Below are positions 358-49,390 of a stretch of DNA of 64,000 nt, in pieces. Position 1 is the stretch's first letter; every line of letters starts with the position of its first letter. This DNA comes from Eledone cirrhosa (Eukaryota), in NCBI GenBank assembly GCA_964016885.1, contig OZ024755.1, positions 7,440,001-7,504,000 on the forward strand. The letters run 5' to 3'. The translations under genes were made by a program, and so were the position numbers. Below the pieces are notes generated by a model. That model was given only the letters and a program-made list of their open reading frames with translations. It had not been told where the DNA came from and made no database searches.

Positions 358-359
<2 letters not shown>

Positions 360-683: not shown

Positions 684-1039
684 GTAGATATGAAAGTAAT
701 TCACTCGAGGCAAGACTTATATAGAAAAATAGCATATAATTAAAACAATAACATCAATAATAAAATAGCGTATAATCTAAACAATAACATCAATAATAAT
801 ACACATATGGTAAATAGGTAGAGAAGTTACAGATGTAAAATATAAGATAGGGTACATTAAAAAGTAAGAAAATGAGAGAATGGAAAATATAAAGAGGTAA
901 ATAAATAAATAAGTGAGAGCGTGTAAGTACATAGTAGTAGTTTTTGAGTAAGTGTTCTTATAAGGATTCGTTGGTAGGAAACTAGATTCGAGATGTACAT
1001 AGAAACGTGTAGAGGGTCCGATAAAAGAGACAATAAATT

Positions 1040-2614: not shown

Positions 2615-2812
2615 GTTAGTACCGTGCGTTAAGGTTATTGCTCAACCTAGTGGGAGCTGGGTATATGGGATAACAAGTTATCGTTATAGGTAATCGAGTT
2701 AGAGGTGTATTTTATTTAACTTTGTCTTGTTTATCTAAACACTTTTTTTAATAAAACCATGTATAACGTTTTATTAGCTTATTTCATCGTAAACATCGAT
2801 TGTTTTCTACCT

Positions 2813-3626
2813 TACTCGCTAACACTTTCACTCTCTCACTCTTGTTGTTCCCCCTCTCTCTCTAATAAATACCCCCCCCCTTCTCTCTATATGTACTCTT
2901 TCACACACACACACACACACGCACACGCACACGCACACGCACACGCACACACGCGCACGCGCGCGCGCATTGATATATAGGTATATATCAACGTATATAA
3001 ACACAAACATATACAGAAATATACAGACATATAAAACGTTTGAAATGGTGGCAAAATTCCCCCAATATCAATAGCTCTTGATTACAAAATGCTAAACATA
3101 GCAGATTAACCTCCCTACAACCGCAGAACATGCTAGAAATAGCAGCTAAAGTATTCCTCAAATTACACATCCGATGCCATGTTAAATGCTAGAAACAGCA
3201 GAAAAATAACGTCTTCTAGTGACATTTTAAATAACAACGAAATTTCCTTCAAGTTATAACGGTAATGGTGTTAGAAACTGCTAGAAAAAGCAGCCAAATC
3301 TACGCGTAAACATATAAACTGTTAGTTAAAATTCCCCATAAATATATAGATTTTAATATAAATTCGAGAATCGTAATCTACATATTTTAATACGTATCTC
3401 TACAAAATTTCAATTAAAAAGATGCAATATTAAGAAAGTTATTAAAGAAACAATATAGGAGGGGGGGGGGATTTAATCATATAAAAAGTTACGGTCAATG
3501 GGAAATAACTCAAAAAAAAATATTTGAACGATTTACTTGCCCTTGAAAACGCTAAAACCTACCGCCTAACCGGCCAGCCAGTTGTAATGGCGTATAGCTG
3601 GCCGGTTAGGCGGTAGGTTAGGGAAG
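2813..3626. repeat. Satellite head module copy 1 (CT-rich start, (CA)n, palindrome, AT-rich body, perfect 23-bp hairpin)
   Basis: Near-identical to 16460-17274 (offset ~13640-13648). Confidence 0.92.
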
Positions 3627-6600
3627 GTTCAACTACGTAGTCAGTACTAATGTTCAACATGATAGCCAGTACATATGCCAACCACCCAACCGGCCAGCCA
3701 GCCGTAATAGCGGTTGGTTGGTTGGTTGGGCGGTTGGTATAGGGAAAGTTCAACTACGTAGTCAGTACTAATGTTCAACATGATAGCCAGTACATATGCC
3801 AACCACCCAACCGGCCAGCCAGCCGTAATAGCGGTTGGTTGGTTGGTTGGGCGGTTGGTATAGGGAAAGTTCAACTACATAGTCAGTACTAATGTTCAAC
3901 ATGATAGCCAGTACATATGCCAACCACCAAACCGGCCAGCCAGCCGTAATGGCGTTTGGTTGGTTGGTTGGGCGGTTGGTATAGGGAAAGTTCAACTACG
4001 TAGTCAGTACTAATGTTCAACATGATAGCCAGTACATATCCCAACCACCAAACTGGCCAGCCAGCCGTAATGGCGTTTGGTTGGTTGGTTGGGCGGTTGG
4101 TATAGGGAAAGTTCAACTACGTAGTCAGTACTAATGTTCAACATGATAGCCAGTACATATGCCAACCACCAAACTGGCCAGCCAGCCTTAATGGCGTTTG
4201 GTTGGTTGGTTGGGCGGTTGGTATAGGGAAAGTTCAACTACGTAGTCAGTACTAATGTTCAACATGATAGCCAGTACATATGCCAACCACCAAACCGGCC
4301 AGCCAGCCGTAATGGCGTTTCGTTGGTTGGTTGGGCGGTTGGTATAGGGAAAGTTCAACTACGTAGTCAGTACTAATGTTCAACATGATAGCCAGTACAT
4401 ATCCCAACCACCAAACTGGCCAGCCAGCCGTAATGGCGTTTGGTTGGTTGGTTGGGCGGTTGGTATAGGGAAAGTTCAACTACGTAGTCAGTACTAATGT
4501 TCAACATGATAGCCAGTACATATGCCAACCACCAAACTGGCCAGCCAGCCGTAATGGCGTTTGGTTGGTTGGTTGGGCGGTTGGTATAGGGAAAGTTCAA
4601 CTACGTAGTCAGTACTAATGTTCAACATGATAGCCAGTACATATGCCAACCACCAAACCGGCCAGCCAGCCGTAATGGCGTTTGGTTGGTTGGTTGGGCG
4701 GTTGGTATAGGGAAAGTTCAACTACGTAGTCAGTTCTAATGTTCAACATGATAGCCAGTACATATCCCAACCACCAAACTGGCCAGCCAGCCGTAATGGC
4801 GTTTGGTTGGTTGGTTGGGCGGTTGGTATAGGGAAAGTTCAACTACGTAGTCAGTACTAATGTTCAACATGATAGCCAGTACATATGCCAACCACCAAAC
4901 TGGCCAGCCAGCCGTAATGGCGTTTGGTTGGTTGGTTGGGCGGTTGGTATAGGGAAAGTTCAACTACGTAGTCAGTACTAATGTTCAACATGATAGCCAG
5001 TACATATGCCAACCACCCAACCGGCCAGCCAGCCGTAATGGCGTTTGGTTGGTTGGTTGGGCGGTTGGTATAGGGAAAGTTCAACTACGTAGTCAGTACT
5101 AATGTTCAACATGATAGCCAGTACATATGCCAACCACCAAACTGGCCAGCCAGCCGTAATAGCGGTTGGTTGGTTGGTTGGGCGGTTGGTATAGGGAAAG
5201 TTCAACTACATAGTCAGTACTAATGTTCAACATGATAGCCAGTACATATGCCAACCACCAAACCGGCCAGCCAGCCGTAATGGCGTTTGGTTGGTTGGTT
5301 GGGCGGTTGGTATAGGGAAAGTTCAACTACGTAGTCAGTACTAATGTTCAACATGATAGCCAGTACATATCCCAACCACCAAACTGGCCAGCCAGCCGTA
5401 ATGGCGTTTGGTTGGTTGGTTGGGCGGTTGGTATAGGGAAAGTTCAACTACGTAGTCAGTACTAATGTTCAACATGATAGCCAGTACATATGCCAACCAC
5501 CAAACTGGCCAGCCAGCCGTAATGGCGTTTGGTTGGTTGGTTGGGCGGTTGGTATAAGGAAAGTTCAACTACGTAGTCAGTACTAATGTTCAACATGATA
5601 GCCAGTACATATGCCAACCGGCCAGCCAGCCGTAATGGCGTTTGGTTGGTTGGTTGGGCGGTTGGTATAGGGAAAGTTCAACTACATAGTCAGTACTAAT
5701 GTTCAACATGATAGCCAGTACATATGCCAACCACCAAACTGGCCAGCCAGCCGTAATGGCGTTTGGTTGGTTGGTTGGGCGGTTGGTATAGGGAAAGTTC
5801 AACTACGTAGTCAGTACTAATGTTCAACATGATAGCCAGTACATATGCCAACCACCCAACCGGCCAGCCAGCCGTAATGGCGTTTGGTTGGTTGGTTGGG
5901 CGGTTGGTATAGGGAAAGTTCAACTACATAGTCAGTACTAATGTTCAACATGATAGCCAGTACATATGCCAACCACCAAACCGGCCTGCCAGCCGTAATA
6001 GCGGTTGGTTGGCTGGTTGGTATAGGGAAGGTTCAACTACGTAGTCAGTACTAATGTTCAACATGATAGCCAGTACATATGCCAACTACCAAACCGGCCT
6101 GCCAGCCGTAATAGCGGTTGGTTGGCTGGTTGGGCGGTTGGTATAGGGAAAGTTCAACTACGTAGTCAGTACTAATGTTCAACATGATAGCCAGTACATA
6201 TGCCAACCAACCAACCGGCCTGCCAGCCGTAATAGCGGTTCGTTGGTTGGTTGGGCGGTTGGTATATGGAAAGTTCAACTACGTAGTCAGTACTAATGTT
6301 CAACATGATAGCCAGTACATATGCCAACCACCCAACCGGCCTGCCAGCCGTAATAGCGGTTCAGTTGGTTGGTTGGGCGGTTGGTATAGGGAAAGTTCAA
6401 CTACGGAGTCAGTACTAATGTTCAACATGATAGCCAGTACATATGCTAACCACCCAACCGGCCTGCCAGCCGTAATAGCGGTTCAGTTGGTTGGTTGGGC
6501 GGTTGGTATAGGGAAAGTTCAACTACGTAGTCAGTACTAATGTTCAACATGATAGCCAGTACATATGCCAACCACCCAACCGGCCTGCCAGCCGTAATAG

Positions 6601-15600: not shown

Positions 15601-16463
15601 GGTTGGTATAGGGAAAGTTCAACTACGTAGTCAGTACTAATGTTCAACATGATAGCCAGTACATATGCCAACCACCCAACCGGCCAGCCAGCCGTAATAG
15701 CGGTTGGTTGGGCGGCTGGTATAGGGAAAGTTCAACTACGTAGTCAGTACTAATGTTCAACATGATAGCCAGTACATATGCCAACCACCCAACCGGCCAG
15801 CCAGCCGTAATAGCGGTTGGTTGGGCGGTTGTTATAGGGAAAGTTCAACTACGTAGTCAGTACTAATGTTCAACATGATAGCCAGTACATTATGCCAACC
15901 ATCCAACCGGCCAGCCAGCCGTAATAGAGTTTGGATGGCTGGTTGGGCGGTTGGTATAGGGAAAGTTCAACTACGTATTCAGTACTAATGTTCAACATGA
16001 TAGCCAGTACATGTGCCAACCACCCAACCGGCCAGCCAGCCGTAATAGCGGATGGCTGGTTGGGCGGTTGGTATAGGGAAAGTTCAACTACGTAGTCAGT
16101 ACTAATGTTCAACATGATAGCCAGTACATTATGCCAACCATCCAACCGGCCAGCCAGCCGTAATAGAGTTTGGATGGTAGGTTGGGCGGTTGGTATAGGG
16201 AAAGTTCAACTACGTAGTCAGTACTAATGTTCAACATGATAGCCAGTACATATGCCACCCACCAAACCAGCCAGCTAGCCGTAATGGAGTTTGGTTGGTT
16301 GGTTGGGCGGTTGGTATAGGGAAAGTTCAACTACGTAGTCAGTACTAATGTTCAACATGATAGCCAGTACATATGCCAACCACCAAACCGGCCAGCCAGC
16401 CGTAATAGCGGATGGCTGGTTGGGCGGTTGGTATAGGGAAAGTTCAACTACGTAGTCAGTACT
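3627..16463. repeat. 121-bp satellite array 1 (~106 monomers)
   Basis: Consensus GTTCAACTACGTAGTCAGTACTAATGTTCAACATGATAGCCAGTACATATGCCAACCACCCAACCGGCCAGCCAGCCGTAATAGCGGTTGGTTGGTTGGTTGGGCGGTTGGTATAGGGAAA; ORF track repeats every 121 bp. Confidence 0.98.
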
Positions 16464-16560
16464 CTTTAACCCTCTCACTCTTGTTGTTCTCCTTCTCTCT
16501 CTAATATTTACCCTTCCCCCTTCTCTCTATATGTACTGTTTTCACTCTCTTTCACACACG

Positions 16561-16616
<56 letters not shown>

Positions 16617-17274
16617 GATATATAGGTATATATCAACGTATATAATCACAAACATATACAGAAATATACAGACATATAAAACGTTTGAAATGGTGGCAAC
16701 ATTCCCCCAATATCAATAGCTCTTGATTACAATATGCTAAACATAGCAGATTAACCTCCCAACAACCGCAGAACATGCTAGAAATAGCAGCTAAAGTATT
16801 CCTCAAATTACACATCCGATGCCATGTTAAATGCTAGAAACAGCAGAAAAATAACGTCTTCTAGTGACATTTTAAATAACAACGAAATTTCCTTCAAGTT
16901 ATAACGGTAATGGTGTTAGAAACTGCTAGAAAAAGCAGCCAAATCTACGCGTAAACATATAAACTGCTAGTTAAAATTCCCCATAAATATATAGATTTTA
17001 ATATAAATTCGAGAATCGTAATCTACATATTTTAATACGTATCTCTACAAAATTTCAATTAAAAAGATGCAATATTAAGAAAGTTATTAAAGAAACAATA
17101 TAGGAGGGGGGGGGGGGGATTTGATAACATAAAAAGTTACGGTCAATGGGAAATAACTCACAAAAAAATATTTGAACGATTTACTTGCCCTTGAAAACGC
17201 TAAAACCTACCGCCTAACCGGCCAGCCAGTGGTAATGGCGGATAGCTGGCCGGTTAGGCGGTAGGTTAGGGAAG
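16460..17274. repeat. Satellite head module copy 2
   Basis: Direct repeat of 2813-3626 (ORFs 2988..3170 vs 16633..16815; 3559..3753 vs 17207..17401). Confidence 0.92.
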
Positions 17275-20200
17275 GTTCAACTACGTAGTCAGTACTAATG
17301 TTCAACATGATAGCCAGTACATATGCCAACCACCCAACCGGCCAGCCAGCCGTAATAGCGGTTGGTTGGTTGGTTGGGCGGTTGGTATAGGGAAAGTTCA
17401 ACTACGTAGTCAGTACTAATGTTCAACATGATAGCCAGTACATATGCCAACCACCAAACCGGCCAGCCAGCCGTAATAGCGGTTGGTTGGCTGGTTGGTC
17501 GGTTGGTATAGGGAAGGTTCAACTACGTAGTCAGTACTAATGTTCAACATGATAGCCAGTACATATGCCAACCACCCAACCGGCCAGCCAGCCGTAATAG
17601 CGGTTGGTTGGTGGGTTGGGCGGTTGGTATAGGGAAAGTTCAACTACGTAGTCAGTACTAATGTTCAACATGATAGCCAGTACATATGCCAACCACCAAA
17701 CCGGCCAGCCAGCCGTAATAGCGGTTGGTTGGTGGGTTGGGCGGTTGGTATAGGGAAAGTTCAACTACGTAGTCAGTACTAATGTTCAACATGATAGCCA
17801 GTACATATGCCAACCACCCAACCGGCCAGCCAGCCGGTATGTATAGGGAAAGTTCAACTACGTAGTCAGTACTAATGTTCAACATGATAGCCAGTACATA
17901 TGCCACCCACCAAACCGGCCTGCCAGCCGTAATAGGGGTTGGTTGGCGGGTTGGTCGGTTGGTATAGGGAAGGTTCAACTACGTAGTCAGTACTAATGTT
18001 CAACATGATAGCCAGTACATATGCCAACCACCCAACCGGCCAGCCAGCCGTAATAGCGGTTGGTTGGTTGGTTAGGCGGTTGGTATAGGGAAAGTTCAAC
18101 TACGTAGTCAGTACTAATGTTCAACATGATAGCCAGTACATATGCCAACCACCCAACCGGCCAGCCAGCCGTAATAGCGGTTGGTTGGTTGGTTGGGCGG
18201 TTGGTATAGGGAAAGTTCAACTACGTAGTCAGTACTAATGTTCAACATGATAGCCAGTACATATGCCAACCACCAAACCGGCCAGCCAGCCGTAATAGCG
18301 GTTGGTTGGCTGGTTGGTCGGTTGGTATAGGGAAGGTTCAACTACGTAGTCAGTACTAATGTTCAACATGATAGCCAGTACATATGCCAACCAACCAACC
18401 GGCCTGCCAGCCGTAATAGCGGTTGGTTGGTTGGTTGGGCGGTTGGTATAGGGAAAGTTCAACTACGTAGTCAGTACTAATGTTCAACATGATAGCCAGT
18501 ACATATGCCAACCACCAAACCGGCCAGCCAGCCGTAATAGCGGTTGGTTGGTGGGTTGGGCGGTTGGTATAGGGAAAGTTCAACTACGTAGTCAGTACTA
18601 ATGTTCAACATGATAGCCAGTACATATGCCAACCACCAAACCGGCCAGCCAGCCGTAATAGCGGTTGGTTGGCTGGTTGGTCGGTTGGTATAGGGAAGGT
18701 TCAACTACGTAGTCAGTACTAATGTTCAACATGATAGCCAGTACATATGCCAACCACCCAACCGGCCAGCCAGCCGTAATAGCGGTTGGTTGGTGGGTTG
18801 GGCGGTTGGTATAGGGAAAGTTCAACTACGTAGTCAGTACTAATGTTCAACATGATAGCCAGTACATATGCCAACCACCAAACCGGCCAGCCAGCCGTAA
18901 TAGCGGTTGGTTGGTGGGTTGGGCGGTTGGTATAGGGAAAGTTCAACTACGTAGTCAGTACTAATGTTCAACATGATAGCCAGTACATATGCCAACCACC
19001 CAACCGGCCAGCCAGCCGTAATAGCGGTTGGTTGGTGGGTTGGGCGGTTGGTATAGGGAAAGTTCAACTACGTAGTCAGTACTAATGTTCAACATGATAG
19101 CCAGTACATATGCCACCCACCAAACCGGCCTGCCAGCCGTAATAGCGGTTGGTTGGCGGGTTGGTCGGTTGGTATAGGGAAGGTTCAACTACGTAGTCAG
19201 TACTAATGTTCAACATGATAGCCAGTACATATGCCAACCACCCAACCGGCCAGCCAGCCGTAATAGCGGTTGGTTGGTTGGTTAGGCGGTTGGTATAGGG
19301 AAAGTTCAACTACGTAGTCAGTACTAATGTTCAACATGATAGCCAGTACATATGCCAACCACCCAACCGGCCAGCCAGCCGTAATAGCGGTTGGTTGGTT
19401 GGTTGGGCGGTTGGTATAGGGAAAGTTCAACTACGTAGTCAGTACTAATGTTCAACATGATAGCCAGTACATATGCCAACCACCAAACCGGCCAGCCAGC
19501 CGTAATAGCGGTTGGTTGGCTGGTTGGTCGGTTGGTATAGGGAAGGTTCAACTACGTAGTCAGTACTAATGTTCAACATGATAGCCAGTACATATGCCAA
19601 CCAACCAACCGGCCTGCCAGCCGTAATAGCGGTTGGTTGGTTGGTTGGGCGGTTGGTATAGGGAAAGTTCAACTACGTAGTCAGTACTAATGTTCAACAT
19701 GATAGCCAGTACATATGCCAACCACCCAACCGGCCAGCCAGCCGTAATAGCGGTTGGTTGGTTGGTTAGGCGGTTGGTATAGGGAAAGTTCAACTACGTA
19801 GTCAGTACTAATGTTCAACATGATAGCCAGTACATATGCCAACCACCCAACCGGCCAGCCAGCCGTAATAGCGGTTGGTTGGTTGGTTGGGCGGTTGGTA
19901 TAGGGAAAGTTCAACTACGTAGTCAGTACTAATGTTCAACATGATAGCCAGTACATATGCCAACCACCAAACCGGCCAGCCAGCCGTAATAGCGGTTGGT
20001 TGGCTGGTTGGTCGGTTGGTATAGGGAAGGTTCAACTACGTAGTCAGTACTAATGTTCAACATGATAGCCAGTACATATGCCAACCACCCAACCGGCCAG
20101 CCAGCCGTAATAGCGGTTGGTTGGTGGGTTGGGCGGTTGGTATAGGGAAAGTTCAACTACGTAGTCAGTACTAATGTTCAACATGATAGCCAGTACATAT

Positions 20201-32200: not shown

Positions 32201-35200
32201 TATGCCAACCGGCCTGCCAGCCGTAATAGCGGTTGTTTGGTTGGTTGGTCGGTTGGTATAGAGAAACTTCGACTACGTAGTCGGTACTAATGTTCAACAT
32301 GATAGCCAGTACTAATGTTCAACATGATAGCCAGTACATATGCCAACCACCAAATCGGCCAGCCAGCCGTAATAGCGGTTGTTTGGTTGGTTGGTCGGTT
32401 GGTATAGGGAAAGTTCAACTACGTAGTCAGTACTAATGTTCAACATGATAGCCAGTACATACGCCAACCACCCAACCGGCAGCCAGCCGTAATAGCGGTT
32501 GGTTGGTTGGTTGGGCGGTTGGTATAGGGAAAGTTCAACTACGTAGTCAGTACTAATGTTCAACATGATAGCCAGTACATACGCCAACCACCCAACCGGC
32601 AGCCAGCCGTAATAGCGGTTGGTTGGTTGGTTGGGCGGTTGGTATAGGGAAAGTTCAACTACGTAGTCAGTACTAATGTTCAACATAATAGCCAGTGCAT
32701 ATGCCAACCACCAAACCGGCCAGCCAGCCGTAATAGCGGTTAGTTGGTTGGTTGGGCGGTTGGTATAGGGAACGTTCAACTACGTAGTCAGTACTAATGT
32801 TCAACATGATAGCCAGTGCATATGCCAACCAACCAATCGGCCAGCCAGTCGTAATAGCGGTTGGTTGGCTGGTTGGGCGGTTGGTATAGGGAACGTTCAA
32901 CTACGTAGTCAGTACTAATGTTCAACATGATAGCCAGTACATATGCTAACCACCAAAACGGCCAGCCAGCCGTAATAGCGGTTGGTTGGGCGGTTGGGCG
33001 GTTGGTATAGGGAAAGTTCAACTACGTAATCAGTACTAATGTTCAACATGATAGCCAGTACATATGCCAACCACCAAACCGGCCTGCCAGCCGTAATAGC
33101 GGTTGGTTGGCGGGTTGGTCGGTTGGTATAGGGAAGGTTCAACTACGTAGTCAGTACTAATGTTCAACATGATAGCCAGTACATATGCCAACCACCCAAC
33201 CGGCCAGCCAGCCGTAATAGCGGTTGGTTGGTTGGTTAGGCGGTTGGTATAGGGAAAGTTCAACTACGTAGTCAGTACTAATGTTCAACATGATAGCCAG
33301 TACATATGCCAACCACCCAACCGGCCAGCCAGCCGTAATAGCGGTTGGTTGGTTGGTTGGGCGGTTGGTATAGGGAAAGTTCAACTACGTAGTCAGTACT
33401 AATGTTCAACATGATAGCCAGTACATATGCCAACCACCAAACCGGCCAGCCAGCCGTAATAGCGGTTGGTTGGCTGGTTGGTCGGTTGGTATAGGGAAGG
33501 TTCAACTACGTAGTCAGTACTAATGTTCAACATGATAGCCAGTACATATGCCAACCAACCAACCGGCCTGCCAGCCGTAATAGCGGTTGGTTGGTTGGTT
33601 GGGCGGTTGGTATAGGGAAAGTTCAACTACGTAGTCAGTACTAATGTTCAACATGATAGCCAGTACATATGCCAACCACCCAACCGGCCAGCCAGCCGTA
33701 ATAGCGGTTGGTTGGTTGGTTAGGCGGTTGGTATAGGGAAAGTTCAACTACGTAGTCAGTACTAATGTTCAACATGATAGCCAGTACATATGCCAACCAC
33801 CCAACCGGCCAGCCAGCCGTAATAGCGGTTGGTTGGTTGGTTGGGCGGTTGGTATAGGGAAAGTTCAACTACGTAGTCAGTACTAATGTTCAACATGATA
33901 GCCAGTACATATGCCAACCACCCAACCGGCCAGCCAGCCGTAATAGCGGTTGGTTGGTGGGTTGGGCGGTTGGTATAGGGAAAGTTCAACTACGTAGTCA
34001 GTACTAATGTTCAACATGATAGCCAGTACATATGCCACCCACCAAACCGGCCTGCCAGCCGTAATAGCGGTTGGTTGGCGGGTTGGTCGGTTGGTATAGG
34101 GAAGGTTCAACTACGTAGTCAGTACTAATGTTCAACATGATAGCCAGTACATATGCCAACCACCCAACCGGCCAGCCAGCCGTAATAGCGGTTGGTTGGT
34201 TGGTTAGGCGGTTGGTATAGGGAAAGTTCAACTACGTAGTCAGTACTAATGTTCAACATGATAGCCAGTACATATGCCAACCACCCAACCGGCCAGCCAG
34301 CCGTAATAGCGGTTGGTTGGTTGGTTGGGCGGTTGGTATAGGGAAAGTTCAACTACGTAGTCAGTACTAATGTTCAACATGATAGCCAGTACATATGCCA
34401 ACCACCAAACCGGCCAGCCAGCCGTAATAGCGGTTGGTTGGCTGGTTGGTCGGTTGGTATAGGGAAGGTTCAACTACGTAGTCAGTACTAATGTTCAACA
34501 TGATAGCCAGTACATATGCCAACCAACCAACCGGCCTGCCAGCCGTAATAGCGGTTGGTTGGTTGGTTGGGCGGTTGGTATAGGGAAAGTTCAACTACGT
34601 AGTCAGTACTAATGTTCAACATGATAGCCAGTACATATGCCAACCACCCAACCGGCCAGCCAGCCGTAATAGCGGTTGGTTGGTTGGTTAGGCGGTTGGT
34701 ATAGGGAAAGTTCAACTACGTAGTCAGTACTAATGTTCAACATGATAGCCAGTACATATGCCAACCACCCAACCGGCCAGCCAGCCGTAATAGCGGTTGG
34801 TTGGTTGGTTGGGCGGTTGGTATAGGGAAAGTTCAACTACGTAGTCAGTACTAATGTTCAACATGATAGCCAGTACATATGCCAACCACCAAACCGGCCA
34901 GCCAGCCGTAATAGCGGTTGGTTGGCTGGTTGGTCGGTTGGTATAGGGAAGGTTCAACTACGTAGTCAGTACTAATGTTCAACATGATAGCCAGTACATA
35001 TGCCAACCAACCAACCGGCCTGCCAGCCGTAATAGCGGTTGGTTGGTTGGTTGGGCGGTTGGTATAGGGAAAGTTCAACTACGTAGTCAGTACTAATGTT
35101 CAACATGATAGCCAGTACATATGCCAACCACCAAACCGGCCAGCCAGCCGTAATAGCGGTTGGTTGGTGGGTTGGGCGGTTGGTATAGGGAAAGTTCAAC

Positions 35201-38200
35201 TACGTAGTCAGTACTAATGTTCAACATGATAGCCAGTACATATGCCAACCACCAAACCGGCCAGCCAGCCGTAATAGCGGTTGGTTGGCTGGTTGGTCGG
35301 TTGGTATAGGGAAGGTTCAACTACGTAGTCAGTACTAATGTTCAACATGATAGCCAGTACATATGCCAACCACCCAACCGGCCAGCCAGCCGTAATAGCG
35401 GTTGGTTGGTGGGTTGGGCGGTTGGTATAGGGAAAGTTCAACTACGTAGTCAGTACTAATGTTCAACATGATAGCCAGTACATATGCCAACCACCAAACC
35501 GGCCAGCCAGCCGTAATAGCGGTTGGTTGGTGGGTTGGGCGGTTGGTATAGGGAAAGTTCAACTACGTAGTCAGTACTAATGTTCAACATGATAGCCAGT
35601 ACATATGCCAACCACCCAACCGGCCAGCCAGCCGTAATAGCGGTTGGTTGGTGGGTTGGGCGGTTGGTATAGGGAAAGTTCAACTACGTAGTCAGTACTA
35701 ATGTTCAACATGATAGCCAGTACATATGCCACCCACCAAACCGGCCTGCCAGCCGTAATAGCGGTTGGTTGGCGGGTTGGTCGGTTGGTATAGGGAAGGT
35801 TCAACTACGTAGTCAGTACTAATGTTCAACATGATAGCCAGTACATATGCCAACCAACCAACCGGCCTGCCAGCCGTAATAGCGGTTGGTTGGTTGGTTG
35901 GGCGGTTGGTATAGGGAAAGTTCAACTACGTAGTCAGTACTAATGTTCAACATGATAGCCAGTACATATGCCAACCACCAAACCGGCCTGCCAGCCGTAA
36001 TAGCGGTTGGTTGGCGGGTTGGTCGGTTGGTATAGGGAAGGTTCAACTACGTAGTCAGTACTAATGTTCAACATGATAGCCAGTACATATGCCAACCACC
36101 CAACCGGCCAGCCAGCCGTAATAGCGGTTGGTTGGTTGGTTGGGCGGTTGGTATAGGGAAAGTTCAACTACGTAGTCAGTACTAATGTTCAACATGATAG
36201 CCAGTACATATGCCAACCACCCAACCGGCCAGCCAGCCGTAATAGCGGTTGGTTGGTTGGTTGGGTGGTTGGTATAGGGAAAGTTCAACTACGTAGTCAG
36301 TACTAATGTTCAACCTGATAGCCAGTACATATGCCAACCACCCAACCGGCCAGCCAGCCGTAATAGCGGTTGGTTGGTTGGTTGGTTGGTTGGTTGGGCG
36401 GTTGGTATAGGGAAAGTTCAACTACGTAGTCGGTACTAATGTTCAACATGATAGCCAATACATACGCCAACCACCCAACCGGCCTGCCAGCCGTAATAGC
36501 GGTTCGTTGGTTGGTTGGTTGGGCGGTTGGTATATGGAAAGTTCAACTACGTAGTCAGTACTAATGTTCAACATGATAGCCAGTGCATATGCCAACCACC
36601 CAACCGGCCAGCCAGCCGTAATAGCGGTTGGTTGGTTGGTTGGGCGGTTGGTATAGGGAAAGTTCAACTACGTAGTGAGTATTAATGTTCAACATGATAG
36701 CCAGTACATATGCCAACCACCAAACCGACCAGCCAGCCGTAATAGCGGTTGGTTGGTTGGTTGGGCGGTTGGTATAGGGAACGTTCAACTACGTAATCAG
36801 TACTAATGTTCAACATGATAGCCAGTACATACGCCAACCAACCAACCGGCCAGCCAGTCGTAATAGCGGTGCATTGGTTGGTTGGGTGGTTGGTATAGGG
36901 AAAGTTCAAGTACGTAGTCAGTACTAATGTTCAACATGATAGCCAATACATACGCCAACCACCCAACCGGCCTGCCAGCCGTAATAGCGGTTCGTTGGTT
37001 GGTTGGTTGGGCGGTTGGTATATGGAAAGTTCAACTACGTAGTCAGTACTAATGTTCAACATGATAGCCAGTGCATATGCCAACCACCCAACCGGCCAGC
37101 CAGCCGTAATAGCGGTTGGTTGGTTGGTTGGGCGGTTGGTATAGGGAAAGTTCAACTACGTAGTGAGTATTAATGTTCAACATGATAGCCAGTACATATG
37201 CCAACCACCAAAGCAACCAGCCAGCCGTAATAGCGGTTGGTTGGTTGGTTGGGCGGTTGGTATAGGGAACGTTCAACTACGTAATCAGTACTAATGTTCA
37301 ACATGATAGCCAGTACATACGCCAACCAACCAACCGGCCAGCCAGTCGTAATAGCGGTGCATTGGTTGGTTGGGTGGTTGGTATAGGGAAAGTTCAAGTA
37401 CGTAGTCAGTACTAATGTTCAACATGATAGCCAATACATACGCCAACCAACCAACCGGCCAGCCAGTCGTAATAGCGGTTGGTTGGTTGGTTGGGCGGTT
37501 GGTATAGGGAAAGTTCAACTACGTAATCAGTACTAATGTTCAACATGATAGCCAGTACATACGCCAACCAACCAACCGGCCAGCCAGTCGTAATAGCGGT
37601 TGGTTGGTTGGTTGGGCGGTTGGTATAGGGAAAGTTCAACTACGTAATCAGTACTAATGTTCAACATGATAGCCAGTACATACGCCAACCAACCAACCGG
37701 CCAGCCAGCCGTAATAGCGGTTGGTTGGTTGGTTGGGCGGTTGGTATAGGGAAAGTTCAACTACGTAATCAGTACTAATGTTCAACATGATAGCCAGTAC
37801 ATATGCCAACCACCAAACTGGCCAGCCAGGCTTAATAGCGGTTGGTTGGTTGGTTGGGCGGTTGGTATAGGGAAAGTTCAACTACGTAGTCAGTACTAAT
37901 GTTCAACATGATAGCCGCTACATATGCCAACCCTCCAACCGTCCAGCCAGTCGTAATGGCGGTTGGTTGGTTGGGCGGTTGGTATAGGGAACGTTCAACT
38001 ACGTAGTCAGTACTAATGTTCAACATGATAGCCGCTACATATGCCAACCCTCCAACCGTCCAGCCAGTCGTAATGGCGGTTGGTTGGTTGGGCGGTTGGT
38101 ATAGGGAACGTTCAACTACGTAGTCAGTACTAATGTTCAACATGATAGCCAGTACATACGCCAGCCACCAAACCGGCCAGCCAGCCGTAATAGCGGTTGG

Positions 38201-41200
38201 TTGGTTGGTTGGGTGGTTGGTATAGAGAAAGTTCAACTACGTAGTCAGTACTAATGTTCAACATGATAGCCAGTGCATATGCCAACCACCCAACCGGCCA
38301 GCCAGCCGTAATAGCGGTTGGTTGGTTGGTTGGGCGGTTGGTATAGGGAAAGTTCAACTACGTAGTCAGTACTAATGTTCAACATGATAGCCAGTTCATA
38401 TGCCAACCACCAAACCGGCCAGCCAGCCGTAATAGCGGTTGGTTGGTTGGTTGGGCGGTTGGTATAGGGAAAGTTCAACTACGTAGTCAGTACTAATGTT
38501 CAACATGATAGCCAGTACATATGCCAACCACCAAACCGACCAGCCAGCCGTAATAGCGCTTGGTTGGTTGGTTGGGCGGTTGGTATAGGGAAAGTTCAAC
38601 TACGTAGTCAGTACTAATGTTCAACATGATAGCCAGTGCATATGCCAACCACCCAACCGGCAGCCAGCCTTAATAGCGGTTGGTTGGTTGGTTGGGCGGT
38701 TGGTATAGGGAAAGTTCAACTACGTAGTCAGTACTAATGTTCAACATGATAGCCAGTGCATATGCCAACCACCCAACCGGCAGCCAGCCGTAATAGCGGT
38801 TGGTTGGTTGGTTGGGCGGTTGGTATAGGGAAAGTTCAACTACATCGTCAGTACTAATGTTCAACATGATAGCCAGTACATATGCCAACCACCAAACCGA
38901 CCAGCCAGCCGTAATAGCGCTTGGTTGGTTGGTTGGGCGGTTGGTATAGGGAAAGTTCAACTACGTAGTCAGTACTAATGTTCAACATGATAGCCAGTGC
39001 ATATGCCAACCACCCAACCGGCAGCCAGCCGTAATAGCGGTTGGTTGGTTGGTTGGGCGGTTGGTATAGGGAAAGTTCAACTACATAGTCAGTACTAATG
39101 TTCAACATGATAGCCAGTGCATATGCCAACCACCCAACCGGCCAGCCAGCCGTAATAGCGGTTAGTTGGTTGGTTGGGCGGTTGGTATAGGGAAAGTTCA
39201 ACTACGTAGTCAGTACTAATGTTCAACATGATAGCCAGTACATATGCCAACCGGCCTGCCAGCCGTAATAGCGGTTGTTTGGTTGGTTGGTCGGTTGGTA
39301 TAGAGAAACTTCGACTACGTAGTCGGTACTAATGTTCAACATGATAGCCAGTACTAATGTTCAACATGATAGCCAGTACATATGCCAACCACCAAATCGG
39401 CCAGCCAGCCGTAATAGCGGTTGTTTGGTTGGTTGGTCGGTTGGTATAGGGAAAGTTCAACTACGTAGTCAGTACTAATGTTCAACATGATAGCCAGTAC
39501 ATACGCCAACCACCCAACCGGCAGCCAGCCGTAATAGCGGTTGGTTGGTTGGTTGGGCGGTTGGTATAGGGAAAGTTCAACTACGTAGTCAGTACTAATG
39601 TTCAACATGATAGCCAGTACATACGCCAACCACCCAACCGGCAGCCAGCCGTAATAGCGGTTGGTTGGTTGGTTGGGCGGTTGGTATAGGGAAAGTTCAA
39701 CTACGTAGTCAGTACTAATGTTCAACATAATAGCCAGTGCATATGCCAACCACCAAACCGGCCAGCCAGCCGTAATAGCGGTTAGTTGGTTGGTTGGGCG
39801 GTTGGTATAGGGAACGTTCAACTACGTAGTCAGTACTAATGTTCAACATGATAGCCAGTGCATATGCCAACCAACCAATCGGCCAGCCAGTCGTAATAGC
39901 GGTTGGTTGGCTGGTTGGGCGGTTGGTATAGGGAACGTTCAACTACGTAGTCAGTACTAATGTTCAACATGATAGCCAGTACATATGCTAACCACCAAAA
40001 CGGCCAGCCAGCCGTAATAGCGGTTGGTTGGGCGGTTGGGCGGTTGGTATAGGGAAAGTTCAACTACGTAATCAGTACTAATGTTCAACATGATAGCCAG
40101 TACATATGCCAACCACCAAACTGGCCAGCCAGCCGTAATAGCGGTTGGTTGGTTGGTTGGGCGGTTGGTATAGGGAAAGTTCAACTACGTAATCAGTACT
40201 AATGTTCAACATGATAGCCAGTGCATATGCCAACCAACCAATCGGCCAGCCAGTCGTAATAGCGGTTGGTTGGCTGGTTGGGCGGTTGGTATAGGGAACG
40301 TTCAACTACGTAGTCAGTACTAATGTTCAACATGATAGCCAGTACATATGCTAACCACCAAACCGGCCAGCCAGCCGTAATAGCGGTTGGTTGGTTGGTT
40401 AGTCGGTTGGTATAGGGAAAGTTCAACTACGTAGTCAGTACTAATGTTCAACATGATAGCCAGCACATATGCCAACCAACCAACCGGCCAGCCAGCCGTA
40501 ATAGCGGTTAGTTGGTTGGTTGGGCGGTTGGTATAGGGAAAGTTCAACTACGTAGTCAGTACTAATGTTCAACATGATAGCCAGTGCATATGCCAACCAC
40601 CAAACCGGCCAGCCAGCCGTAATAGCGGTTAGTTGGTTGGTTGGGCGGTTGGTATAGGGAAAGTTCAACTACGTAGTCAGTACTAATGTTCAACATGATA
40701 GCCAGTGCATATGCCAACCACCAAACCGGCCAGCCAGCCGTAATAGCGGTTAGTTGGTTGGTTGGGCGGTTGGTATAGGGAAAGTTCAACTACGTAGTCA
40801 GTACTAATGTTCAACATGATAGCCAGTGCATATGCCAACCACCAAACCGGCCAGCCAGCCGTAATAGCGGTTAGTTGGTTGGTTGGGCGGTTGGTATAGG
40901 GAAAGTTCAACTACGTAGTCAGTACTAATGTTCAACATGATAGCCAGTGCATATGCCAACCACCCAACCGGCAGCCAGCCGTAATGGCGTTTGGTTGGTT
41001 GGTTGGGCGGTTGGTATAGGGAAAGTTCAACTACGTAGTCAGTACTAATGTTCAACATGATAGCCAGTACATATGCCAACCACTAAACCGGCCTGCCAGC
41101 CGTAATAGCGGCTGGTTGGCTGGTTGGGCGGTTGGTATAGGGAAAGTTCAACTACGTAGTCAGTACTAATGTTCAACATAATAGCCAGTACATACGCCAA

Positions 41201-44200
41201 CCAACCAACCGGCCTGCCAGCCGTAATAGCGGTTCGTTGGTTGGTTGGGTGGTTGGTATAGGGAAAGTTCAACTACGTAGTCAGTACTAATGTTCAACAT
41301 GATAGCCAGTACATATGCCAACCACCCAACCGGCCAGCCAGCCGTAATAGCGGTTGGTTGGTTGGTTGGGCGGTTGGTATAGGGAAAGTTCAACTACGTA
41401 GTCAGTACTAATGTTCAACATGATAGCCAGTACATATGCCAACCACCCAACCGGCCAGCCAGCCGTAATAGCGGTTGGTTGGTTGGTTGGGTGGTTGGTA
41501 TAGGGAAAGTTCAACTACGTAGTCAGTACTAATGTTCAACCTGATAGCCAGTACATATGCCAACCACCCAACCGGCCAGCCAGCCGTAATAGCGGTTGGT
41601 TGGTTGGTTGGTTGGTTGGGCGGTTGGTATAGGGAAAGTTCAACTACGTAGTCGGTACTAATGTTCAACATGATAGCCAATACATACGCCAACCACCCAA
41701 CCGGCCTGCCAGCCGTAATAGCGGTTCGTTGGTTGGTTGGTTGGGCGGTTGGTATATGGGAAGTTCAACTACGTAGTCAGTACTAATGTTCAACATGATA
41801 GCCAGTGCATATGCCAACCACCCAACCGGCCAGCCAGCCGTAATAGCGGTTGGTTGGTTGGTTGGGCGGTTGGTATAGGGAAAGTTCAACTACGTAGTGA
41901 GTATTAATGTTCAACATGATAGCCAGTACATATGCCAACCACCAAAGCAACCAGCCAGCCGTAATAGCGGTTGGTTGGTTGGTTGGGCGGTTGGTATAGG
42001 GAACGTTCAACTACGTAATCAGTACTAATGTTCAACATGATAGCCAGTACATACGCCAACCAACCAACCGGCCAGCCAGTCGTAATAGCGGTGCATTGGT
42101 TGGTTGGGTGGTTGGTATAGGGAAAGTTCAAGTACGTAGTCAGTACTAATGTTCAACATGATAGCCAATACATACGCCAACCAACCAACCGGCCAGCCAG
42201 TCGTAATAGCGGTTGGTTGGTTGGTTGGGCGGTTGGTATAGGGAAAGTTCAACTACGTAATCAGTACTAATGTTCAACATGATAGCCAGTACATACGCCA
42301 ACCAACCAACCGGCCAGCCAGTCGTAATAGCGGTTGGTTGGTTGGTTGGGCGGTTGGTATAGGGAAAGTTCAACTACGTAATCAGTACTAATGTTCAACA
42401 TGATAGCCAGTACATACGCCAACCAACCAACCGGCCAGCCAGCCGTAATAGCGGTTGGTTGGTTGGTTGGGCGGTTGGTATAGGGAAAGTTCAACTACGT
42501 AATCAGTACTAATGTTCAACATGATAGCCAGTACATATGCCAACCACCAAACTGGCCAGCCAGGCTTAATAGCGGTTGGTTGGTTGGTTGGGCGGTTGGT
42601 ATAGGGAAAGTTCAACTACGTAGTCAGTACTAATGTTCAACATGATAGCCGCTACATATGCCAACCCTCCAACCGTCCAGCCAGTCGTAATGGCGGTTGG
42701 TTGGTTGGGCGGTTGGTATAGGGAACGTTCAACTACGTAGTCAGTACTAATGTTCAACATGATAGCCGCTACATATGCCAACCCTCCAACCGTCCAGCCA
42801 GTCGTAATGGCGGTTGGTTGGTTGGGCGGTTGGTATAGGGAACGTTCAACTACGTAGTCAGTACTAATGTTCAACATGATAGCCAGTACATACGCCAGCC
42901 ACCAAACCGGCCAGCCAGCCGTAATAGCGGTTGGTTGGTTGGTTGGGTGGTTGGTATAGAGAAAGTTCAACTACGTAGTCAGTACTAATGTTCAACATGA
43001 TAGCCAGTGCATATGCCAACCACCCAACCGGCAAGCCAGCCGTAATAGCGGTTGGTTGGTTGGTTGGGCGGTTGGTATAGGGAAAGTTCAACTACGTAGT
43101 CAGTACTAATGTTCAACATGATAGCCAGTTCATATGCCAACCACCAAACCGGCCAGCCAGCCGTAATAGCGGTTGGTTGGTTGGTTGGGCGGTTGGTATA
43201 GGGAAAGTTCAACTACGTAGTCAGTACTAATGTTCAACATGATAGCCAGTACATATGCCAACCACCAAACCGACCAGCCAGCCGTAATAGCGCTTGGTTG
43301 GTTGGTTGGGCGGTTGGTATAGGGAAAGTTCAACTACGTAGTCAGTACTAATGTTCAACATGATAGCCAGTGCATATGCCAACCACCCAACCGGCAGCCA
43401 GCCTTAATAGCGGTTGGTTGGTTGGTTGGGCGGTTGGTATAGGGAAAGTTCAACTACGTAGTCAGTACTAATGTTCAACATGATAGCCAGTGCATATGCC
43501 AACCACCCAACCGGCAGCCAGCCGTAATAGCGGTTGGTTGGTTGGTTGGGCGGTTGGTATAGGGAAAGTTCAACTACATCGTCAGTACTAATGTTCAACA
43601 TGATAGCCAGTACATATGCCAACCACCAAACCGACCAGCCAGCCGTAATAGCGCTTGGTTGGTTGGTTGGGCGGTTGGTATAGGGAAAGTTCAACTACGT
43701 AGTCAGTACTAATGTTCAACATGATAGCCAGTGCATATGCCAACCACCCAACCGGCAGCCAGCCGTAATAGCGGTTGGTTGGTTGGTTGGGCGGTTGGTA
43801 TAGGGAAAGTTCAACTACATAGTCAGTACTAATGTTCAACATGATAGCCAGTGCATATGCCAACCACCCAACCGGCCAGCCAGCCGTAATAGCGGTTAGT
43901 TGGTTGGTTGGGCGGTTGGTATAGGGAAAGTTCAACTACGTAGTCAGTACTAATGTTCAACATGATAGCCAGTACATATGCCAACCGGCCTGCCAGCCGT
44001 AATAGCGGTTGTTTGGTTGGTTGGTCGGTTGGTATAGAGAAACTTCGACTACGTAGTCGGTACTAATGTTCAACATGATAGCCAGTACTAATGTTCAACA
44101 TGATAGCCAGTACATATGCCAACCACCAAATCGGCCAGCCAGCCGTAATAGCGGTTGTTTGGTTGGTTGGTCGGTTGGTATAGGGAAAGTTCAACTACGT

Positions 44201-47200
44201 AGTCAGTACTAATGTTCAACATGATAGCCAGTACATACGCCAACCACCCAACCGGCAGCCAGCCGTAATAGCGGTTGGTTGGTTGGTTGGGCGGTTGGTA
44301 TAGGGAAAGTTCAACTACGTAGTCAGTACTAATGTTCAACATGATAGCCAGTACATACGCCAACCACCCAACCGGCAGCCAGCCGTAATAGCGGTTGGTT
44401 GGTTGGTTGGGCGGTTGGTATAGGGAAAGTTCAACTACGTAGTCAGTACTAATGTTCAACATAATAGCCAGTGCATATGCCAACCACCAAACCGGCCAGC
44501 CAGCCGTAATAGCGGTTAGTTGGTTGGTTGGGCGGTTGGTATAGGGAACGTTCAACTACGTAGTCAGTACTAATGTTCAACATGATAGCCAGTGCATATG
44601 CCAACCAACCAATCGGCCAGCCAGTCGTAATAGCGGTTGGTTGGCTGGTTGGGCGGTTGGTATAGGGAACGTTCAACTACGTAGTCAGTACTAATGTTCA
44701 ACATGATAGCCAGTACATATGCTAACCACCAAAACGGCCAGCCAGCCGTAATAGCGGTTGGTTGGGCGGTTGGGCGGTTGGTATAGGGAAAGTTCAACTA
44801 CGTAATCAGTACTAATGTTCAACATGATAGCCAGTACATATGCCAACCACCAAACTGGCCAGCCAGCCGTAATAGCGGTTGGTTGGTTGGTTGGGCGGTT
44901 GGTATAGGGAAAGTTCAACTACGTAATCAGTACTAATGTTCAACATGATAGCCAGTGCATATGCCAACCAACCAATCGGCCAGCCAGTCGTAATAGCGGT
45001 TGGTTGGCTGGTTGGGCGGTTGGTATAGGGAACGTTCAACTACGTAGTCAGTACTAATGTTCAACATGATAGCCAGTACATATGCTAACTACCAAACCGG
45101 CCAGCCAGCCGTAATAGCGGTTGGTTGGTTGGTTAGTCGGTTGGTATAGGGAAAGTTCAACTACGTAGTCAGTACTAATGTTCAACATGATAGCCAGCAC
45201 ATATGCCAACCAACCAACCGGCCAGCCAGCCGTAATAGCGGTTAGTTGGTTGGTTGGGCGGTTGGTATAGGGAAAGTTCAACTACGTAGTCAGTACTAAT
45301 GTTCAACATGATAGCCAGTGCATATGCCAACCACCAAACCGGCCAGCCAGCCGTAATAGCGGTTAGTTGGTTGGTTGGGCGGTTGGTATAGGGAAAGTTC
45401 AACTACGTAGTCAGTACTAATGTTCAACATGATAGCCAGTGCATATGCCAACCACCAAACCGGCCAGCCAGCCGTAATAGCGGTTAGTTGGTTGGTTGGG
45501 CGGTTGGTATAGGGAAAGTTCAACTACGTAGTCAGTACTAATGTTCAACATGATAGCCAGTGCATATGCCAACCACCAAACCGGCCAGCCAGCCGTAATA
45601 GCGGTTAGTTGGTTGGTTGGGCGGTTGGTATAGGGAAAGTTCAACTACGTAGTCAGTACTAATGTTCAACATGATAGCCAGTGCATATGCCAACCACCCA
45701 ACCGGCAGCCAGCCGTAATGGCGTTTGGTTGGTTGGTTGGGCGGTTGGTATAGGGAAAGTTCAACTACGTAGTCAGTACTAATGTTCAACATGATAGCCA
45801 GTACATATGCCAACCACCAAACCGGCAGCCAGCCGTAATAGCGGTTAGTTGGTTGGTTGGGCGGTTGGTATAGGGAAAGTTCAACTACGTAGTCAGTACT
45901 AATGTTCAACATGATAGCCAGTGCATATGCCAACCACCCAACCGGCAGCCAGCCGTAATGGCGTTTGGTTGGTTGGTTGGGCGGTTGGTATAGGGAAAGT
46001 TCAACTACGTAGTCAGTACTAATGTTCAACATGATAGCCAGTACATATGCCAACCACCAAACCGGCAGCCAGCCGTAATAGCGGTTAGTTGGTTGGTTGG
46101 GCGGTTGGTATAGGGAAAGTTCAACTACGTAGTCAGTACTAATGTTCAACATGATAGCCAGTGCATATGCCAACCACCCAACCGGCAGCCAGCCGTAATG
46201 GCGTTTGGTTGGTTGGTTGGGCGGTTGGTATAGGGAAAGTTCAACTACGTAGTCAGTACTAATGTTCAACATGATAGCCAGTACATATGCCAACCACCAA
46301 ACCGGCAGCCAGCCGTAATAGCGGTTAGTTGGTTGGTTGGGCGGTTGGTATAGGGAAAGTTCAACTACGTAGTCAGTACTAATGTTCAACATGATAGCCA
46401 GTGCATATGCCAACCACCCAACCGGCAGCCAGCCTTAATAGCGGTTGGTTGGTTGGTTGGGCGGTTGGTATAGGGAAAGTTCAACTACGTAGTCAGTACT
46501 AATGTTCAACATGATAGCCAGTGCATATGCCAACCACCCAACCGGCAGCCAGCCGTAATGGCGTTTGGTTGGTTGGTTGGGCGGTTGGTATAGGGAAAGT
46601 TCAACTACGTAGTCAGTACTAATGTTCAACATGATAGCCAGTAAATATGCCAACCACCAAACCGGCCAGCCAGCCGTAATAGCGGTTAGTTGGTTGGTTG
46701 GGCGGTTGGTATAGGGAAAGTTCAACTACGTAGTCAGTACTAATGTTCAACATGATAGCCAGTGCATATGCCAACCACCCAACCGGCAGCCAGCCTTAAT
46801 AGCGGTTGGTTGGTTGGTTGGGCGGTTGGTATACGGAAAGTTCAACTACGTAGTCAGTACTAATGTTCAACATGATAGCCAGTACATATACCAACCACCA
46901 AACCGGCCAGCCAGCCGTAATAGCGGTTAGTTGGTTGGTTGGGCGGTTGGTATAGGGAAAATTCAACTACGTAGTCAGTTCTAATGTTCAACATGATAGC
47001 CAGTGCATATGCCAACCACCAAACCAGCCAGCCAGCCGTAATAGCGGTTGGTTGGTTGGTTGGGCGGTTGGTATAGGGAAAGTTCAACTACGTAGTCAGT
47101 TCTAATGTTCAACATGATAGCCAGTGCATATGCCAACCACCAAACCGGCCAGCCAGCCGTAATAGCGGTTGGTTGGTTGGTTGGGCGGTTGGTATAGGGA

Positions 47201-47912
47201 AAGTTCAACTACGTAGTCAGTACTAATGTTCAACATGATAGCCAGTGCATATGCCAACCACCAAACCGGCCAGCCAGCCGTAATAGCGGTTGGTTGGTTG
47301 GTTGGGCGGTTGGTATAGGAAAAGTTCAACTACGTAGTCAGTACTAATGTTCAACATGATAGCCAGTGCATATGCCAACCACCCAACCGGCCAGCCAGCC
47401 GTAATGGCGGTTGGTTGGTTGGTTGGGCGGTTGGTATAGGGAAAGTTCAACTACGTAGTCGGTACTAATGTTCAACATGATAGCCAGTGCATATGCCAAC
47501 CACCAAACCGGCCAGCCAGCCGTAATAGCGGTTGGTTGGTTGGTTGGGCGGTTGGTATAGGGAAAGTTCAACTACGTAGTCGGTACTAATGTTCAACATG
47601 GTAGCCAGTACATATACCAACCACCCAGCCGGCCAGCCAGCCGTAATGGCGGTTGGCTGGCTGGTTGGGCGGTTGGTATAGGGAACGTTGTACTACGCAG
47701 TCAGTACTAATGTTAAAAAATGTAGCCAGTACATATACCAACCGGCCAGCCAGTCGTAATGGCGGTTGGTAAATGTAACGTTCAACTACGCAGCCAGCAC
47801 TAAAGTTGAACATGGTAGCCACTACATATACCAACCGCCCAACCAATCTCCATTAAGGCTGACTGGCCGGTTGGGTGGTGGGTATATGTACTGGCTACCA
47901 TGTTGAACTTTA
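17275..47912. repeat. 121-bp satellite array 2 (~250 monomers) with higher-order duplications, ending in an inverted partial monomer
   Basis: Same consensus; HOR offsets 2178, 488, 4734 and 11776 bp from diagnostic variants; fold-back at 47801-47912. Confidence 0.98.
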
Positions 47913-49186: not shown

Positions 49187-49187
49187 A

Positions 49188-49189
49188 TG

Positions 49190-49360: not shown

Positions 49361-49390
49361 CCGAGTCTTCAACCAATGGACAATGACCAC
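49361..49390 (+). CDS. Candidate 30-bp microexon of the adhesion GPCR (RVFNQWTMT), upstream of the GPS exon
   Basis: ttttgtttttttag acceptor and gtaagt donor; open in phase 2-2, compatible with the phase-2 start of exon 57803. Confidence 0.45.

Follow-up and report, generated by a model that had tools for sequence, protein, structure and literature searches.

A probable element-derived hairpin satellite in a host-gene intron of the octopod Eledone cirrhosa

The closest described systems are TIR-220, the satellite that accompanies the foldback transposon Tetris in Drosophila virilis (PMC4079207), and CDSTR177, a satellite derived from Galileo (PMC13553610). We analyzed 64,000 nucleotides of the Eledone cirrhosa genome (GenBank assembly GCA_964016885.1, contig OZ024755.1, positions 7,440,001 to 7,504,000 of the forward strand; hereafter, the window), in which a preliminary description had noted about 360 tandem hairpins at 3,627 to 47,800. 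We consider it probable that this array is a young, single-locus hairpin satellite that derives from an element and sits inside a host intron. Like Tetris/TIR-220 and CDSTR177, it is noncoding, is tied to long inverted arms, and consists of a few internal repeats that expanded in place and are still joined to the arm flank. As with Tetris/TIR-220, short arrays occur in a dispersed element and a long, more homogeneous array has the same flank, and as in foldback elements, the long inverted noncoding arms carry modular tandem repeats. Unlike in Tetris and CDSTR177, each Eledone monomer is itself a hairpin, and the arms meet at a hairpin without a middle domain. The Eledone array also differs in that we found no target-site duplication or shared terminus for it, in its number of copies (about 360, versus 66 and 82), and in its location in a gene intron.

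Other described repeats share parts of this design. The C2MC cluster in intron 10 of mouse Sfmbt2 comprises 65 microRNA (miRNA) genes in mouse and one in rat (PMC3212979). Like C2MC, the Eledone array is a lineage-specific, locus-unique intronic tandem array (45 to 65 kb) with a mobile-element-derived unit, a self-complementary simple-repeat hairpin, and nested duplications; unlike C2MC, which has annotated miRNA products, it has a stem that is short for Drosha and hypervariable arms. Drosophila hp-CG4068 also has tandem hairpins on one transcript (predicted in our case), but its 9 to 20 copies are conserved across species and yield Dcr-2-dependent small interfering RNAs (siRNAs) with a known target, whereas the Eledone array is confined to a single locus (PMC10317233). 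The nonautonomous Cg_HINE Helentrons of oyster are likewise molluscan dispersed elements in which a microsatellite is followed by satellite-like tandem repeats (PMC7492417), but in the Eledone element we identified no subterminal inverted repeat (subTIR), inverted repeat, or 3' palindrome module, and the hairpin lies inside every monomer. The macro-dyad satellites of Tribolium share dyad symmetry and orientation switches with our locus (PMC12581902); they are centromeric, occur on multiple chromosomes, and flip often, whereas the Eledone array runs for 44 kb in a single orientation before one flip at its end. Our literature search on octopus satellites and tandem repeats returned no description of this hairpin repeat.

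The array and its relatives in the genome

Coordinates are window positions unless marked C15 (genome contig), and relatives elsewhere in the genome are labeled L001 and so on. Tandem Repeats Finder (TRF) reported one 121-bp tandem array at 3,561 to 47,743, with 365 copies and 91% matches, and linker anchors placed in 3,627 to 47,800 numbered 362, in keeping with the count first reported. The anchors define 361 intervals (124 distinct sequences), 263 of which measure 121 bp; monomer counts below refer to the 352 intervals of 100 to 135 bp, with nine intervals of 25, 26, 93, 146, or 833 bp excluded. Each monomer consists of a 53-bp linker, made of two ~25-bp subrepeats, followed by a 68-nt hairpin with (CCAR)n and (GGTT)n arms. 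The exact hairpin quoted in the preliminary description is present in only 27 copies, and 250 of the 352 monomers retain at least 28 of the 31 pairs in fixed register. Single extra 25-mers produce 146-bp monomers (at 11,576, 14,624, and 27,533), and a linker of two subrepeats stands at 3,627 to 3,676. A coding role was considered and rejected, as the array contains only five stop-free frames of at least 150 amino acids, and four of these lie in 146-bp variants that have been duplicated.

The array occupies about 44 of the 52 kb of an intron, on its sense strand. The host gene was recognized from an exon portion at 62,756 to 62,929 with 97% identity to an adhesion G protein-coupled receptor (GPCR) of Octopus bimaculoides (P0001), the exons of which map in order on the plus strand of C15:7,347,261-7,591,184; the gene looks intact, as judged overall rather than exon by exon. 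The intron extends from window position -2,835 to a 30-nt exon, falls between P0001 residues ~668 and 669, has GT/AG ends, and leaves the reading frame continuous.

The 850 bp directly upstream of the array tie it to sequences elsewhere. This element body and the first monomers (~1,150 bp) are 82 to 84% identical to both arms of a palindrome at C15:5,016,696-5,020,853, which is 4,158 bp long, has arms 91% identical to each other, and lacks a long open reading frame (ORF). The order in the palindrome is body, monomers, central hairpin, inverted monomers, and inverted body, so that behind the same body there are 4 or 5 monomers in the palindrome versus about 360 in the array. Genome-wide, the body (2,990 to 3,460) has 48 matches, with 68 to 90% identity outside the window, and by these alignments it is placed in an old dispersed family. 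Old copies (L038 and L042) have the twin 25-bp linker and a direct CCAGCC-rich tract, without an inverted 3' arm; because this direct tract stands where young copies have the inverted arm, the hairpin is derived. The hairpin-unit pattern has 297 matches in the genome, 66 within the window and 231 outside it. The array-type junction between arm and linker, by comparison, is private to the locus (289 of 289 genome-wide matches inside the window). Identity between the array and outside copies is 83 to 90%, versus 99.9 to 100% between blocks of the array. At the right end of the array, the layout of a terminal foldback matches the center of L001, and on this likeness the foldback is read as a remnant of the palindrome center and right arm. 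One genome thus holds a traceable series from hairpinless element through hairpin element and hairpin-centered palindrome to 44-kb intron array.

Several hallmarks of a foldback transposon were not seen. No target-site duplication (8 to 10 bp) is evident at the palindrome ends, copies have no shared termini and differ in their 5' limits, and by eye we saw no transposase in 15 to 21 flanking 10-kb stretches, only ORFs of the host or of long interspersed nuclear element (LINE)/Penelope-like type (no genome-wide search was made). Although the parent behaves as a foldback element would, we do not assign it to that class, because neither a target-site duplication nor a shared terminus nor a transposase turned up in these comparisons. 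In comparison with Helentrons (HINE), the microsatellite and the repeats are present, and the parent's ends are ill defined. An origin as a hammerhead retrozyme satellite was rejected: no hammerhead was among the 15 Rfam matches up to an E value of 5 (1 kb scanned), and the core motif was not seen by eye.

Conservation is highest in the linker subrepeats, both within the monomer and among old relatives, and it is conceivable that the 25-mers are protein-binding iterons. The repeat could be a DNA-level cis element: its iterated 25-bp protein sites and stem-loop would serve as a platform for a transposase, or as an origin of rolling-circle replication, and so have driven the amplification. The conservation of the linker agrees with this, as does the fact that repeats in foldback terminal inverted repeats can hold transposase sites (PMC4079207). 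We nevertheless regard it as a remote prospect: loop sequences vary among relatives, no matching enzyme gene lies in the flanking stretches inspected, and the nested block duplications are unlike the uniformity left by one-pass rolling-circle replication. The minus-strand loop contains TATTAC, a candidate nick site for rolling-circle replication, which was rejected for the same variation in loops.

The palindrome lies inside a 10.2-kb unit that is repeated in tandem at 99.6% identity (C15:4,995,600-5,020,853; L022 to L024). Each unit also holds a 77-bp minisatellite, and the tandem lies some 1 kb past the end of a gene on the minus strand, the exons of which look like DIPK2A. A tandem macrosatellite of ~5.9 to 6.5 kb occurs on many contigs, often near their ends (C6 end, C8 and C9 starts, C10, C11, and C19); each copy combines LINE fragments, microsatellites, and one hairpin unit (L008, L026-L027, L064-L089, and L104). 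Other family members bear local foldbacks, with arms of 172 bp, 286 bp, and other lengths (L038:509-856, L039:2199-2917, L096, L099, and L102), which suggests that the family, or the genome, is prone to inversions.

We propose the following history. Alignment shows an old dispersed element without a hairpin and a young form with an inverted arm. A short inverted repeat may then have seeded a fold-back duplication at the hairpin loop, giving the palindrome (body, monomers, center, monomers, body) that survives at C15:5.0 Mb and, in shortened form, where the array ends on the right. Large palindromes are known to arise by fold-back priming at a short inverted repeat beside a break (PMC7999016), and a short inversion could in this way seed both foldbacks and a hairpin satellite. 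One palindrome copy would have entered the intron; its outer left portion and the greater part of its right arm would have disappeared at two junctions with retroelements. Unequal exchange is the presumed mechanism by which monomers expanded and blocks of several kilobases, up to 11.8 kb, were duplicated; the duplications themselves are plain. Comparison further shows three C>T changes that make the pure (GGTT)n arm and turn G-C pairs into G.U; slippage in 4-base steps is still active in this arm.

Duplication is seen at several scales. The array is interrupted at 16,465 to 17,275 by a second copy of the upstream body, so that a unit of body plus array has been duplicated; blocks of 1.3 to 4.1 kb recur at 99.9 to 100%, nearly identical blocks of 2 to 4.7 kb are also present, and a block of 11,776 bp occurs twice in perfect tandem. 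The length of the array could partly be an assembly artifact in which this last block was unrolled twice, which is compatible with the other readings. It is suspicious that 11,785 bp match at identity 1.0 while other blocks differ slightly (0.9987 to 0.9997), but a very recent unequal exchange would leave the same picture. In contigs of runs X1 to X3, the depth of a single monomer variant is 690 to 744, versus 7 to 11 for unique flank; these runs, of unrecorded type, come from one sample, behave like genomic DNA, and are possibly the assembly's own, and the depth, although no measure of copy number, indicates many copies in the sample. We consider unrolling unlikely.

Stem pairing, strand asymmetry, and variation

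The commonest monomer has the stem given in the preliminary description, with 31 positions comprising 25 Watson-Crick pairs, 5 G.U pairs, and 1 A.C mismatch. As a 72-nt RNA, the hairpin folds at -58.0 kcal/mol on the plus strand (z = -10.9) versus -40.6 kcal/mol on the minus strand (z = -6.7), and the plus strand folds better in all 352 monomers, which upholds the strand asymmetry described at first. A hairpin of this kind is far from anything that chance would produce. The G.U to A.C ratio of 5:1 is within chance (binomial P = 0.22 two-sided, 0.11 one-sided), and its source can be traced: stem positions 45, 49, and 50 are C in relatives and T in the array, and these three changes yield the pure 3' arm and convert three G-C pairs to G.U. 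Read in the monomer direction, macrosatellite copies have 3 or 4 G.U versus 3 A.C, and three palindrome monomers have G.U/A.C counts of 1/5, 2/1, and 1/3; the strand energies of these relatives are equal or reversed. In the central hairpin of the palindrome, the counts are necessarily 5/1 for one strand and 1/5 for its complement. The last full monomer of the array, which is nearer the relatives and has more of the ancestral C's, folds at -62.2 kcal/mol, versus -57.2 kcal/mol for the array type. Because the relatives keep the C's without a bias and the last monomer folds better, the asymmetry goes back, on these comparisons, to two or three recent changes by which the stem became weaker. Transcription-linked mutation bias as a neutral cause of the G.U excess was unsupported, as C>T plus A>G changes show no excess relative to G>A plus T>C changes (12 versus 17 in the stem; 11 versus 10 in linker plus loop).

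We then examined whether variation among monomers respects pairing. Variants were called relative to the commonest letter of each column, and variant types serve as a proxy for independent events. The copies are far from independent (~97 monomers sit in one exact 11,776-bp duplication), and a few substitutions beside indels may be alignment artifacts. The stem shows more of its possible substitution types than the linker (71 of 186 versus 38 of 159; Fisher P = 0.005), and across 117 distinct rows the two arms have diversities of 0.092 and 0.071, compared with 0.059 for the loop and 0.034 for the linker. Of the 71 stem types, 50 disrupt a pair, 20 maintain or restore one, and 1 is neutral; by substituted cells (n = 891), the figures are 654, 229 (kept), and 8. 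The preliminary description had named stem-friendly variants as common. Such variants are real (T49C in 56 copies, T45C in 10, and C58T in 18), but they are outnumbered by pair breakers, which include the commonest changes (C14A in 160 copies, A23T in 61, C12A in 46, and G40T in 39). The covariation expected among aligned monomers did not appear: there was no compensatory pair change in the 352 monomers, and the only double change (3 copies) gives a mismatch. Indels in one arm affect 89 of the 352 monomers, with no matching indel in the opposite arm in any case, and 38 of them are steps of 4, 8, or 12 bases in the (GGTT)n 3' arm. A strand-specific test was null, with Watson-Crick-to-G.U changes at 11 of 25 possible sites versus Watson-Crick-to-A.C changes at 9 of 25 (P = 0.77; 109 versus 107 copies). 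A stem-preserving spectrum was thus largely not borne out.

Several results pull toward selection on the RNA all the same. Folding is preserved in all 352 monomers (-30 to -63 kcal/mol). Transitions from G.U to Watson-Crick occur at 8 of 10 possible sites, versus 20 of 50 for transitions at Watson-Crick pairs (P = 0.035), and plus-strand variants are milder than under random placement (mean of 3.54 versus 3.89 kcal/mol; permutation P = 0.02 to 0.03), more so for the 49 types present in at least four copies (P = 0.004). Mildness is similar on the minus strand (P = 0.05 to 0.07; plus-minus difference, P = 0.43) and is gone at Watson-Crick pairs (52 types; P = 0.26). Four of the eight G.U reversions are alleles common to relatives; without them P is 0.23 for all 67 types, although the 46 types in at least four copies keep a P of 0.034. 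In addition, the G.U-tolerant strand is the one that would be transcribed, which agrees with the prediction although it would happen by coincidence in 1 of 2 cases, and each of the three changes fixed in the stem is of a kind that RNA tolerates. The latter has a chance of 1 in 8 at best, if the changes are independent; it is weaker if they arose in a single slippage step, and it leaves a residual hint for small-RNA or ADAR readings. The weak excess of mild changes stems from G.U sites reverting to Watson-Crick pairs and is not strand specific, and retained ancestral alleles or arm-to-arm correction of DNA would explain it as well as selection. The hairpin and its G.U bias are likely by-products of DNA-level events, not of selection on RNA.

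Transcription and possible roles of the hairpins

The preliminary description had proposed a structured-RNA array rather than an inert satellite. What stands of this is that the G.U-favored strand is the sense strand of the host intron, which is the strongest point for the proposal; selection on pairing was not seen, and the strand-specific test was null. Because the variant spectrum largely took the form that the preliminary description itself had said would speak against it, the proposal is only partly supported. As the array is on the sense strand, the hairpins would be in the pre-mRNA whenever the host gene is transcribed, and a single pre-mRNA would be loaded with about 360 predicted stems of 30 bp, in an animal whose adenosine-to-inosine editing is heavy. 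In our model, the array is probably transcribed and edited as a bystander: the intron would fold into many such stems, ADAR would likely edit them passively, and the intron would then be degraded. Passive editing is plausible given that octopus editing falls mostly in introns and untranslated regions (PMC9699675). Until RNA evidence says otherwise, the array counts as ordinary repeat turnover.

The intron could alternatively be a small-RNA factory, in the making or in use, with miRNAs or siRNAs cut from the (CCAR)n or (GGUU)n arm and perhaps directed against related repeats, for which the 231 or more related copies outside the window are potential targets. The sense-strand position and the very stable plus-strand hairpins suit this idea, and precedents exist in the tandem hairpins of hp-CG4068 (PMC10317233) and in C2MC, a 55- to 65-kb intronic array with a retroposon-plus-microsatellite hairpin unit and two growth phases (PMC3212979). 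Many new miRNAs are also reported in octopods (PMC9699675). The rat counterpart of C2MC nevertheless shows that such arrays may be nearly barren (PMC3212979). Here, the arms show no conservation, each of them varying more than the linker, and compensatory changes are lacking. Geometry also argues against canonical miRNAs. The 68-nt hairpin has the size of a pre-miRNA, but Drosha requires a lower stem of ~11 bp in addition, and subtracting this from a stem of 31 to 32 bp with a loop of 4 to 6 nt leaves ~44 to 46 nt. Metazoan precursors, with two arms of 20 to 27 nt and a loop, have a minimum of 49 nt and a mean of 60 nt (PMC11701709), both above this value. An Rfam scan of 1 kb of the window detected no known miRNA family above threshold; the best match was a weak likeness to the tetranucleotide-like mir-341 (32.8 bits versus a gathering score of 90). 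Six 10-letter arm motifs were absent from supplement files 2 and 3 of PMC9699675, a blank that is uninformative because the main data archive was outside the search. We regard a small-RNA factory as quite improbable. By analogy, the locus could be an octopod counterpart of mouse Sfmbt2/C2MC at birth, giving rise to small RNAs (possibly by a miR-451-like short-hairpin route) or serving as an ADAR sink; although there is little chance of this, it would provide a direct model for how cephalopods gain small-RNA genes from repeats. In any case, the array is a test locus for whether such arrays become small-RNA clusters.

Selection could also have kept the hairpins as a double-stranded RNA (dsRNA) element that binds or recruits ADAR or other dsRNA proteins and in this way tunes how the 30-nt exon is spliced or how the host mRNA is edited. 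The array lies just upstream of this micro-exon, which begins 1.45 kb downstream of it, and octopus editing is mostly in introns and untranslated regions (PMC9699675) and proceeds at the highest rate among 22 species (10.1101/2020.01.19.911685). However, apart from the G.U reversions there is no sign of purifying selection on pairing, and the array type is very young and unique to the locus. A.C mismatches had been put forward as preferred ADAR sites, but the plus-strand hairpin has one A.C site and 14 A's in 72 nt, and the five A.C sites are on the antisense strand. A selected dsRNA element is accordingly very improbable in our view.

Flanking elements and the host gene

The coordinates of the features are collected in Table 1. 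The two strands of the first, variant hairpin are about equally stable. On both sides, the element and array are bordered by broken retroelements, which are putatively Penelope-like by their motifs. Compared on the reverse strand, the right fragment matches the left one at 97.6% over 83 bp and 84% over 368 bp. The two face head-to-head around the element and array with their 3' ends outward and are different copies (84 to 98% alike); one insertion with filler and two separate events are not distinguishable. Their frames matched no Pfam family at the cutoff, and the frame at 1,682 to 2,104 in the left fragment has two homologs, both without a name.

Table 1. Positions of the array, its flanking elements, and host exons in the window
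Feature	Position	Strand	Basis
Broken retroelement, a 45-bp direct repeat at each end (352-396, 2662-2706), TA run at outer end	352..2707	-	
Element body carrying monomers, left-truncated, with CA run	2708..3556	+	Alignment to C15 palindrome arms
First, variant hairpin, 24-bp perfect stem	3557..3619	.	-52.7 (+) vs -50.7 (-) kcal/mol
Hairpin monomer array, ~360 x 121 bp	3627..47800	+	TRF, linker anchors, folding
Second copy of element body plus first hairpin	16465..17275	+	99%/471 bp; 94.4%/788 bp with microsatellite
Perfect tandem duplication, 11,776 bp	21295..44855 (21,295-33,079 = 33,071-44,855)	+	Identity 1.0 over 11,785 bp
Terminal foldback: linker, hairpin, inverted linker	47800..47912	.	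-71 (+) / -68.1 (-) kcal/mol
Second broken retroelement fragment, inverted relative to left one, abuts foldback	47913..48863	+	Alignment
Host exon, 30 nt, P0001 residues ~669-679, AG/GT flanked	49361..49390	+	Protein alignment
Host exon	57,804-57,926	+	
Host exon	60,890-61,003	+	
Host exon	62,417-62,527	+	
Host exon with Pfam 7tm_2	62,750-62,929	+	

The host gene spans ~244 kb and is an ortholog of P0001, an adhesion GPCR with pentraxin/LamG and 7tm_2 domains. Just upstream of the 30-nt exon, at 48,986 to 49,290, are two copies of a very high-copy short element, presumably an octopus short interspersed nuclear element, whose contig depths add up to millions. One of the host's later introns contains, antisense to the gene, a stop-free LINE frame of 1,206 amino acids (L029:431-4048, minus strand; window position +64.4 to +68.0 kb) that encodes an endonuclease, a reverse transcriptase, and C2H2 zinc fingers.

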